Virus record (IMG/VR): IMGVR_UViG_3300044673_000097
Span: 21,380-85,379 of that record
DNA length: 64,000 nucleotides
Reading direction: 5' to 3' (one strand)
Source of the DNA: a virus
The position numbers and the translations under genes were made by a program. The notes beneath the pieces were generated by a model, which searched no databases, was not told the origin of the DNA, and saw only the letters and a program-made list of their open reading frames with translations. This document shows, in pieces, positions 29,780-29,953 of the stretch (positions are counted from its first letter, which is position 1; the number at the start of each line of letters is the position of its first letter).

Positions 29780-29953
29780 CCTGCATCCAATCCAAGGCCG
29801 CGCATTGCAGCGACACCGCGCGGGAGTCAATCCGCCTGAGGCTCGCACTGCATCCCATAACCTTCCCACCGTGCATTGCAGCATCGACCCAGCGACCTGC
29901 GCAGCGGCGTCTCGTTCCTGCACCCCATGGCGCTCCCGCACACGCATTGCTGC
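29780..29953 (-). CRISPR. Degenerate mini-array 2 (3 repeats, 2 internal spacers)
   Basis: Minus-strand repeats GC(T/A)GCAATGC-N10/15-AT(G/T)GG(A/G)TGCAG at 29918-29953, 29848-29882 and 29781-29811; spacers of 35 and 36 nt. Confidence 0.6.

Follow-up and report, generated by a model that had tools for sequence, protein, structure and literature searches.

Three short units that share their ends and differ in their middles lie in a row on the minus strand of an IMG/VR virus, and the question they raise is what kind of array they form and which protein and RNA, if any, would read them. The source record has 85,379 nt and is an estimated 88% complete; the window, by which we mean the whole stretch of DNA analysed, is a 64-kb part of this record. 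A preliminary description, made from the letters alone, took the units for a second guide array, of a kind that ordinary repeat finders would miss, and our analysis bears this out. The units (array 2; U3, U2 and U1 in minus-strand order) very probably form a degenerate CRISPR-type guide array of a phage system built on a dead Cas12f, and most likely it is through its two conserved ends that each repeat would pair with a helper RNA, whose sequence lies directly upstream.

Array 2 and its position in the locus

On the minus strand each unit reads GCWGCAATGC, then a core, then ATGGGRTGCAG(G) (Table 1). A search of both strands of the 64-kb window for the plus-strand 10-mer GCATTGCWGC gave only three exact matches, which are all within array 2, at 29802, 29873 and 29944, and so have a spacing of exactly 71 and 71 nt. 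When one mismatch was allowed there were 19 matches, compared with 12.3 +/- 3.5 in shuffled sequence, and one such copy, at 30081, lies within a scaffold hairpin. The spacers are unique and about 34-37 nt long, while the repeats are conserved in part, at their ends, the invariant 5' block having 9-10 nt and the invariant 3' block 5-6 nt. Array 2 thus has the repeats and unique spacers at a regular period that characterize a CRISPR array, and the three units first described, with conserved ends and a looser core, are real, given their common strand and exact 71/71-nt period. The cores, which vary, had been called unrelated, which is too strong, as they have in common a purine-rich YGGGA/CGAGA element that also occurs in three units of the closest relative (L002). 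The 3' end TGCAG(G) is indeed the only run of letters common to arrays 1 and 2, the repeats of array 1 ending in TGCAGGG. A coding region as a reading of array 2 was rejected, since no family match was found and the repeats are in register with the arrays of relatives.

Table 1. Features of the locus in minus-strand order, with positions in the window.
Feature	Position	Strand	Remarks
Tracr-like scaffold 1	32448..32549	-	R2 model match 43.3 bits, E 4e-9
Scaffold 1, parts	32505-32477 (long anti-repeat)	-	hairpin 1 (loop GCTGCA), hairpin 2, long anti-repeat
Scaffold 1, fused repeat-end handle	end at 32452	-	...GGGTGCAG, then first guide
Array 1	32236..32413	-	three 33-37-nt repeats, 70-71-nt period; last repeat overlaps the GGAGG ribosome-binding site of the effector
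Effector, Cas12f-like, 501 aa	30726..32231	-	RuvC-I Asp replaced by His, RuvC-II Glu by Pro; RuvC-III Asp and zinc ribbon kept
Conserved partner gene, 194 aa	30145..30729	-	helical N-domain, basic region, leucine-zipper-like coiled coil
Tracr-like scaffold 2	29954..30099	-	R2 model (built without the window) match 25.2 bits, E 1.2e-4
Scaffold 2, hairpin 1	30097-30078	-	loop ACTGCA
Scaffold 2, hairpin 2	30075-30061	-	
Scaffold 2, long hairpin 3	30055-30000	-	
Scaffold 2, tail	29999-29971	-	complementary to 5' parts of repeats
Array-2 unit U3, degenerate repeat, 37 nt	29917..29953	-	5' GCAGCAATGC, 3' ATGGGGTGCAGG
Spacer U3/U2	29883..29916	-	29881-29917 matches a foreign metagenome contig
Array-2 unit U2, degenerate repeat, 36 nt	29847..29882	-	5' GCTGCAATGC, 3' ATGGGATGCAGT
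Spacer U2/U1	29812..29846	-	no target found
Array-2 unit U1, shortest repeat, 32 nt	29780..29811	-	5' GCTGCAATGC, 3' TTGGATGCAGG; 4-5-nt core deletion
Putative last guide after U1	29742..29779	-	placed from the 71-nt period; 3' limit not defined

The minus strand carries, in order, scaffold 1, array 1, the gene for a 501-aa protein, a gene for a 194-aa protein, scaffold 2, array 2, two small ORFs and the terminase gene, the large terminase and a Mu-type portal lying just downstream of the locus. The Cas12f-like gene is on the same strand as array 2 and about 770 nt upstream of it. The 85-kb record (estimated 88% complete) gave no match to Cas1 (PF01867) or Cas2 (PF09827), a promoter and terminator scan of the module found no consensus promoter or terminator, and Rfam has no family here, the sole match being RsmY (16 bits, E 0.7). 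A search for RNA sequencing runs that contain the stretch found none. The ends of an IS200/IS605 transposon were considered and rejected, as the gene order beside the terminase gene recurs at 64% protein identity.

A Cas12f-like effector with altered catalytic residues

The 501-aa protein contains a Cas12f1-like TNB domain (E 5.6e-12) and matches the PADLOC models for Cas12f (E 3.7e-34) and Cas12u3 (E 8.1e-34). A profile of its 15-member family finds the AsCas12f chains 8j12, 7wju and 8dzj at E about 1e-30, and finds the truncated dCas12f structure 9n9c (365 aa) at E 1.7e-10, far weaker than AsCas12f. The underlying alignment (A1) holds 15 of 20 homologous proteins, P0012, P0015, P0016, P0018 and P0019 having been excluded as seemingly short or partial. 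The protein therefore has the TnpB-like RuvC fold, the TNB zinc ribbon and the profile similarity by which Cas12f is recognized, but lacks an intact RuvC D-E-D triad. None of the 15 aligned members keeps the RuvC-I Asp (His in 5, Asn in 10). Nine have the RuvC-II Glu, which is replaced by Pro in the window protein and its four closest relatives and by His in one, and all 15 retain the RuvC-III Asp. This replacement of catalytic residues across the aligned family suggests that DNA cleavage has been lost, and the effector is probably a Cas12f homologue without nuclease activity. Relocated catalytic residues are also possible, catalytic residues in moved positions being described for TnpB/Cas12 (PMC10691335).

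The start of the 194-aa gene overlaps the effector stop codon (ATGA). Homologues of this gene occur in L002, L004, L006, L007 and L008, on either side of the array, and none was found in L003 or in the L005 fragment. Domain searches with the protein returned only coiled-coil and bZIP-type matches, below the curated cut-offs, and the Atlas leads are DUF3102-like phage proteins (score 0.90-0.94, TM 0.47-0.53).

Homologous loci carry CRISPR arrays in the same place

All 20 homologues come from metagenomes; P0002, P0004 and P0005 among them have 51-67% identity. Single-protein scans of viral and genome collections and a profile scan of genome contigs gave no relatives, and cultured phages gave nothing beyond distant TnpB-like genes at 27% identity or less. 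The loci examined (L001-L008) amount to seven distinct ones, since L001 equals L002; L005 is a 1.4-kb fragment. Homologues with arrays just downstream on the same strand share 36-64% identity, and repeats lie downstream on the same strand in all six of the other distinct loci of sufficient length (L002, L003, L004, L006, L007 and L008). Four of these have repeat-spacer arrays: at least 12 repeats of 36 nt at 70-73-nt spacing in L004, 12 repeats mostly at 70-73-nt spacing in L006, six repeats at 71-73 nt followed by degenerate units in L003, and two repeats 71 nt apart in L008. The other two, L002 and L007, have irregular repeat units (12-175 nt and 45-74 nt). The spacing of the units in the window is thus shared by relatives, with repeats in four homologous loci at a 70-73-nt period, and array 2 stands in the place, on the strand and at the period of the family's CRISPR array. 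An adjacent effector on the same strand, with arrays equally placed in homologous loci, is a further property that array 2 has in common with CRISPR arrays.

The end motifs of array 2 are also conserved in relatives. The 5' block G..GCAATG is invariant in three units of L002, and so is the 3' block, in a locus whose effector is 64% identical to that of the window. Degenerate units that retain nothing of the repeat but its 3' end recur in L002 and L003, and others of the kind lie ahead of the gene in L004. Scaffold and handle (the 3' end of the repeat) together precede every guide in L002, which has eight such long units, and likewise stand at the head of module 1 of the window (scaffold 1 and array 1), but not in array 2.

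A tracr-like scaffold precedes each array

A two-hairpin element lies upstream of both arrays in the window and recurs in eight copies in L002 and in one copy each in L003 and L007. Its two hairpins comprise 13 pairs, with 94% of cells paired and 8 pairs that change on both sides; none of 500 shuffles reached these values, and slid controls were at most 54% paired. A covariance model of the element (R1) located a new scaffold copy in L004 (28 bits, E 7e-8), with a 12-nt anti-repeat and short repeat units after it, and another in L006 (19 bits, E 9e-5), with a 19/19-nt anti-repeat and a terminator-like hairpin after it. These scaffold copies with anti-repeats indicate that the family uses tracr-type RNAs, like Cas12f1. 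A second model (R2), which holds no sequence from the window, returned scaffolds 1 and 2 as its two best matches (Table 1), the next-best match having an E of 0.07 or more. Matches to the scaffold in the whole 85-kb phage record number exactly two, each directly upstream of one array.

These results bear on two proposals of the preliminary description, namely that each repeat carries its own anti-repeat and forms a natural single-guide-like unit, or that one protein uses two guide classes. The first gains no support in that form: the units themselves, at 32-37 nt, lack the two scaffold hairpins, and a separate tracr-like scaffold lies 5' of array 2, the scaffold model having one match upstream of the array and none inside the units. 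The second proposal is the better one, since with two scaffold copies, one per array, the locus probably has one protein for two guide modules.

Probable pairing of the repeat ends with the scaffold

The final letters of a repeat complement the six-letter loop in hairpin 1 of its own scaffold. In both modules of the window the loop CUGCA faces the repeat end UGCAG, in L002 and L007 the loop UUGCA faces UGCAA, and in L006 the loop UCACA faces UGUGA, with five of five pairs in every case; four of five pairs form in L003 and three of five in L004. Between loci the pairs change in a compensatory manner, from U-A to C-G and from G-C to A-U, so that the covariation looked for across homologous loci is found between the scaffold loop and the repeat handle, on a base of 7 loops in 6 loci and partly blurred by G-U tolerance. 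Guides of Cas12f1 are described as having a long repeat/anti-repeat stem and a short one of 5-7 bp in a pseudoknot immediately before the guide, and the bulge between the two stems as dispensable in AsCas12f1 (PMC11246509, PMC10097598). The CUGCA/UGCAG pair of loop and handle resembles the short repeat/anti-repeat pseudoknot of these guides as described there, and module 1 of the window fits their two-stem design in full. Its repeats form duplexes of about 26 bp with scaffold 1, at -41.0, -36.5 and -28.9 kcal/mol against -19 +/- 3 kcal/mol in shuffled sequence (0, 0 and 3 of 1000 as low).

The long stem of module 2 is weak and pairs only 7-15 bp. Its energies of -23.6, -23.1 and -18.0 kcal/mol, against shuffled means of -20.0, -17.6 and -16.2 kcal/mol, are not significant (168, 60 and 245 of 1000 shuffles as low, the sum being reached by 68 of 1000), and duplexes of the array-2 units with the whole scaffold are likewise no better in energy than shuffles, whereas anti-repeats are clear in module 1 and in L006. 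All three array-2 repeats nevertheless choose one and the same segment, the tail of scaffold 2 (AUCUCGCAACGCAUUG), where by eye U3 forms 8+7 bp, U2 6+6 bp and U1 about 7 bp. The same tail is complementary to an array-2-type unit of L002 at 14 of 16 positions (by eye), which suggests that the stem of module 2 was formerly longer. Taken together, the pairing of the handle with the loop and of the 5' part with the tail allows the conserved ends to be read as the two places where the repeat touches the helper RNA, and the core between them as a drifting linker. In the non-coding regions of L002 no CATTGC was found as a partner of the 5' motif, so the 5' end of the repeat may serve another purpose.

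Spacer matches in rhizosphere metagenomes

The locus was compared with contigs of four rhizosphere metagenomes, all of them fragmentary and informative only for the parts that they cover. The spacer between U3 and U2, as the segment 29881-29917, matches a 1361-nt contig (run X2, record 5) at 36 of 37 letters. The flanks of this match are unlike each other, unlike the window and unlike the repeats, so the contig is neither a host CRISPR array nor the array of a sister phage. For array 1, two spacers have matches in other contigs, one over 32 of 33 letters and one over 33 of 36. The best contig matches fall exactly on spacers, which make up about 7% of the stretch, and by a rough estimate the 36/37 match is far beyond chance and the second, from array 1, marginally so. 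Since X2 is a possible sample of origin, the match shows that the phage and the matched DNA co-occur, and is not an independent find. Short contig matches in coding regions, with 4-6 mismatches in about 35 nt, were taken as chance, again on a rough estimate.

One of the three array-2 spacers thus corresponds to foreign DNA, and the other two guides have no target in the collections searched. Two array-2 spacers gave no exact match in IMG/VR, and the array-2 region gave no match in cultured phage records. No common flank motif was evident among the three spacer matches. The six putative guides, compared with the 85-kb phage record itself, gave nothing beyond chance 12-13-mers. Searches of cultured phages with the arrays of L006 and L004 yielded nothing significant, the best match (E 0.2) being low-complexity mycobacteriophage sequence.

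Proposed mechanism and alternative explanations

We consider it rather likely, with less assurance than the identity of the array itself, that the guides of array 2 work with scaffold 2 and the probably nuclease-dead Cas12f by way of two contacts, in a manner like that of type V-F. Transcription of the minus strand would run across scaffold 2 and all three repeat-spacer units, and the transcript would be processed into guides. In the first contact, the last five nucleotides of the repeat (UGCAG), beside the guide, would pair with the loop CUGCA of hairpin 1 to form a short pseudoknot; in the second, the 5' part of the repeat (CAAUGCG and some of the core) would pair with the scaffold tail to form a shortened long stem, and the stretch between the contacts would act as a linker. 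The core may have drifted because it is such a linker, in a phage without Cas1 and Cas2 to renew its repeats. Once loaded, the protein would bind, and not cut, DNA complementary to the guides of about 34-37 nt, possibly with the involvement of the 194-aa coiled-coil partner, and the outcome would be the silencing of a rival element or a host gene. A more specific version, which we put forward only tentatively, is that the virus is a temperate-type soil phage with a two-module system of RNA-guided DNA binding, in which the repeats of module 2 are minimal and the guides silence genes of co-occurring rivals or hosts. On such a reading the repeats of module 2, pared down to the two short contacts of a Cas12f guide, would be a natural minimal-repeat design.

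The alternative that survives best, though we think it unlikely, is that array 2 is a decaying relic, formerly a CRISPR array of the system and now without usable guides, whose conserved ends would be no more than remnants that mutation has so far spared. The array has only three units, with diverged cores and a 4-5-nt deletion in U1, its long anti-repeat stem is weak, the phage record has no adaptation module, and degenerate units are common in L002, L003 and L007. Drift, however, would neither keep two end blocks invariant around a changing core nor preserve an exact 71/71-nt register, and the same two blocks are invariant in three units of L002 even though the effectors are just 64% identical. 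The upstream scaffold is moreover intact and covarying, and one spacer is still 36/37 identical to a co-occurring contig.

Less probable again is that the units are self-contained, with the 5' CUGCA of each pairing with its own 3' UGCAG in a large-loop hairpin before the guide, so that the hairpin-1 loop would be unneeded and array 2 would supply a second class of guide. The complementarity of the termini, which the preliminary description had noted for the units as a group, is perfect (5/5) in U1 and U2, and the lowest-energy fold of U2 pairs its termini; in U3, which has CAGCA, A faces A without compensation, and this position is also mismatched in two of the three L002 units. The 5' motif of the repeat (CUGCAAUGC) equals the loop and 3' arm of scaffold hairpin 1 and is thereby able to pair with its own handle. 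It also varies in step with the handle, from UUGCA/UGCAA in L002 (one of three units) to CUGCA/UGCAG in the window, the repeat ends of L003 and L007 are mutually complementary by eye, and L002 offers no trans partner for the 5' motif. Yet the RNA folding that was suggested as a check adds no support, the self-fold energies lying within the shuffle range (42, 93 and 159 of 500 shuffles as low). Array 1 and the L004 repeats have no terminal pairing (by eye), yet all carry a handle that matches the loop, and a full scaffold is retained beside array 2. The 3' TGCAG of every unit pairs with the loop of hairpin 1, against perfect self-pairing in two of the three. Terminal self-pairing is thus possible, and not better supported than pairing of the handle with the scaffold.

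Least credible of all is that the units are sites acting at the level of DNA, such as operators, iterons or packaging-recognition sites. Such sites would occupy the 540-bp gap before the packaging genes, and the coiled-coil partner or a terminase small subunit would be candidate binders. Two small ORFs and the large terminase gene do follow the units, the unit ends are dyad-like and contain TGCA, and the neighbouring partner protein has a basic region and a leucine-zipper-like tail, but such sites would leave unexplained a 71-nt period identical to that of CRISPR arrays in homologous loci, the covariation of the handle with an RNA hairpin loop, a match to a foreign contig delimited by the spacer and the presence of the same handle upstream of the effector gene, and the L004 and L003 arrays lie directly after the effector in another gene context.

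Relation to known RNA-guided systems

Among known systems, type V-F CRISPR-Cas12f1 (AsCas12f; 8j12, 7wju and 8dzj, with dual guides) supplies the best protein matches for the 501-aa effector. The system described here resembles it in a protein of about 500 aa with the order WED, REC, RuvC and TNB and a zinc ribbon, in repeats of about 36 nt that the guides follow on the 3' side, in a tracr-like scaffold with anti-repeat, and, as far as Cas12f1 guides are described in the papers cited above, in a short 5-bp contact right before the guide and a separate long stem. It differs in that the RuvC-I Asp is absent from all 15 aligned family members and the RuvC-II Glu also from the subclade of the window, that the system is encoded by phages and lacks Cas1 and Cas2, that it includes a conserved 194-aa partner gene and has two scaffold/array modules flanking the operon, and that the repeats of array 2 have degenerate cores and a very short long stem.

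Nuclease-dead Cas12f proteins with an inactivated RuvC, some of them beside CRISPR arrays, have been reported, and their guides proposed to repress transcription (Hoffmann et al., Nature 2026, PMC13472631); covariation was used there to locate guide scaffolds, which lie upstream of arrays. According to that account these dCas12f proteins are truncated at the C-terminus (9n9c, an example in the PDB, has 365 aa), and for the dCas12f-sigmaE activators the paper describes single chimeric guides, with no tracrRNA found. In comparison with the dCas12f of that account, the present system is alike in its derivation from Cas12f, its RuvC changes, its adjacency to arrays and its scaffolds, but is full length and phage-borne, has another partner and keeps tracr-like scaffolds. 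By profile E-values the family is closer to active AsCas12f than to truncated dCas12f (9n9c).

Inactivated branches of Cas12f, fusion of scaffold and repeat, and arrays of omega-RNAs have been described by Altae-Tran et al. (PMC10691335), and the eight scaffold-handle units of L002 and the handle fused to scaffold 1 in the window fit the path of fusion and duplication given there. Array 2 differs from natural single-guide (omega-RNA-like) arrays, as its units are without scaffold hairpins and share one upstream scaffold. Virus-borne mini-CRISPR arrays (Shmakov et al. 2023, 10.1101/2023.03.03.530964; PMC11656645) are similar in being short arrays on a mobile element without adaptation genes, and array 1, lying in the 5' region of its own effector, is like the cas-regulating repeat-like RNAs described in the same work; unlike the arrays of Shmakov et al. 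as described, which rely on borrowed host Cas proteins, the phage here carries a dedicated dead effector and a helper RNA. We found no paper with this architecture in the literature searched; the family may be listed in the extended data and tables of PMC13472631 or PMC10691335.

Should its guides prove functional, array 2 would be a natural mutational map of a repeat of the Cas12f type. The map would show that some 9 nt at the 5' end and some 6 nt beside the guide suffice, and such minimal repeats would be useful for shrinking the guide RNAs of miniature editors and CRISPRi tools. To the RNA-guided DNA binders the locus would add a phage-borne, full-length Cas12f, probably disabled for cutting, with a conserved partner and two modules of helper RNA and array. 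The spacer match from the same habitat makes the targets of phage dead-Cas12f systems directly testable.

A separate observation concerns array 1, one guide of which matches a repeat of L004 at 16 of 17 letters; this guide may have as its target the repeats in the dead-Cas12f array of a related phage.

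Putative guide RNA units at array 1 and at homologous loci

The final repeat of array 1, the three-repeat array upstream of the gene for the Cas12f-like effector, ends in ATTGGAGG rather than ATTGCAGG, and this end provides the effector gene with a GGAGG ribosome-binding site a few bases 5' of its TTG start. Effector translation and guide-RNA biogenesis may be coupled at array 1.

Homologous metagenome loci carrying relatives of the effector gene display other arrangements of the same parts. At the closest, L002, eight long units contain the whole two-hairpin scaffold (a tracr-like helper RNA) and the handle (the 3' repeat end adjoining the guide) ahead of guides, and 13 irregularly spaced short units (16 nt) contain the handle only. 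The L002 units constitute a natural single-guide (omega-RNA-like) array that flanks the operon on both sides. L006 carries a second module on the opposite strand, approximately 4 kb from the first, in which a tracrRNA with an anti-repeat (19/19 nt) and a terminator-like hairpin lies between two repeat copies. At L004, a scaffold and a 12-nt anti-repeat are followed, directly 5' of the effector gene, by truncated repeat ends of 16 nt, three or four in number, with a period of 33-34 nt. These form a mini-array whose guides are short (~17 nt) and which, lying in the 5' region of the effector gene itself, may be autoregulatory.

Location of the features discussed
Feature	Locus	Position	Strand
Array 1, final repeat, with effector start	window	32229-32272	
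Array 1, spacer 2	window	32269-32305	minus
Partner protein gene	window	30145-30729	minus
CGAGGGTCTCG, 3.6 copies	window	41025-41098	
CGAGGGTCTCG, 4.1 copies	window	41220-41282	
Long and short units	L002	4420-4660, 6723-7550	
Truncated repeat ends	L004	3628-3715	
Regular repeats	L004	5442-6050	
Second module	L006	12600-13100	minus

Spacer match, partner protein and tandem repeats

Spacer 2 of array 1 is identical at 16 of 17 letters to the L004 CRISPR repeat, a match present in all nine regular repeats, and ~26 of 36 letters agree by eye over the whole repeat. As about one such 17-mer match is expected by chance over all 41 queries, it is notable only through the identity of its target. This spacer could be a guide against the array of a rival phage, or else what remains of an older repeat.

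The nearest Atlas (protein resource) neighbours of the 194-aa partner protein are phage proteins, with feature scores of 0.90-0.94 and structural TM values of 0.47-0.53; DUF3102 or Plasmid_parti_N is present in some of them. We regard this resemblance as a lead only.

Elsewhere in the window, the 11-nt tandem repeat CGAGGGTCTCG occurs in two clusters ~184 nt apart, which are iteron-like and may serve as an origin of replication or as the site of a regulator.
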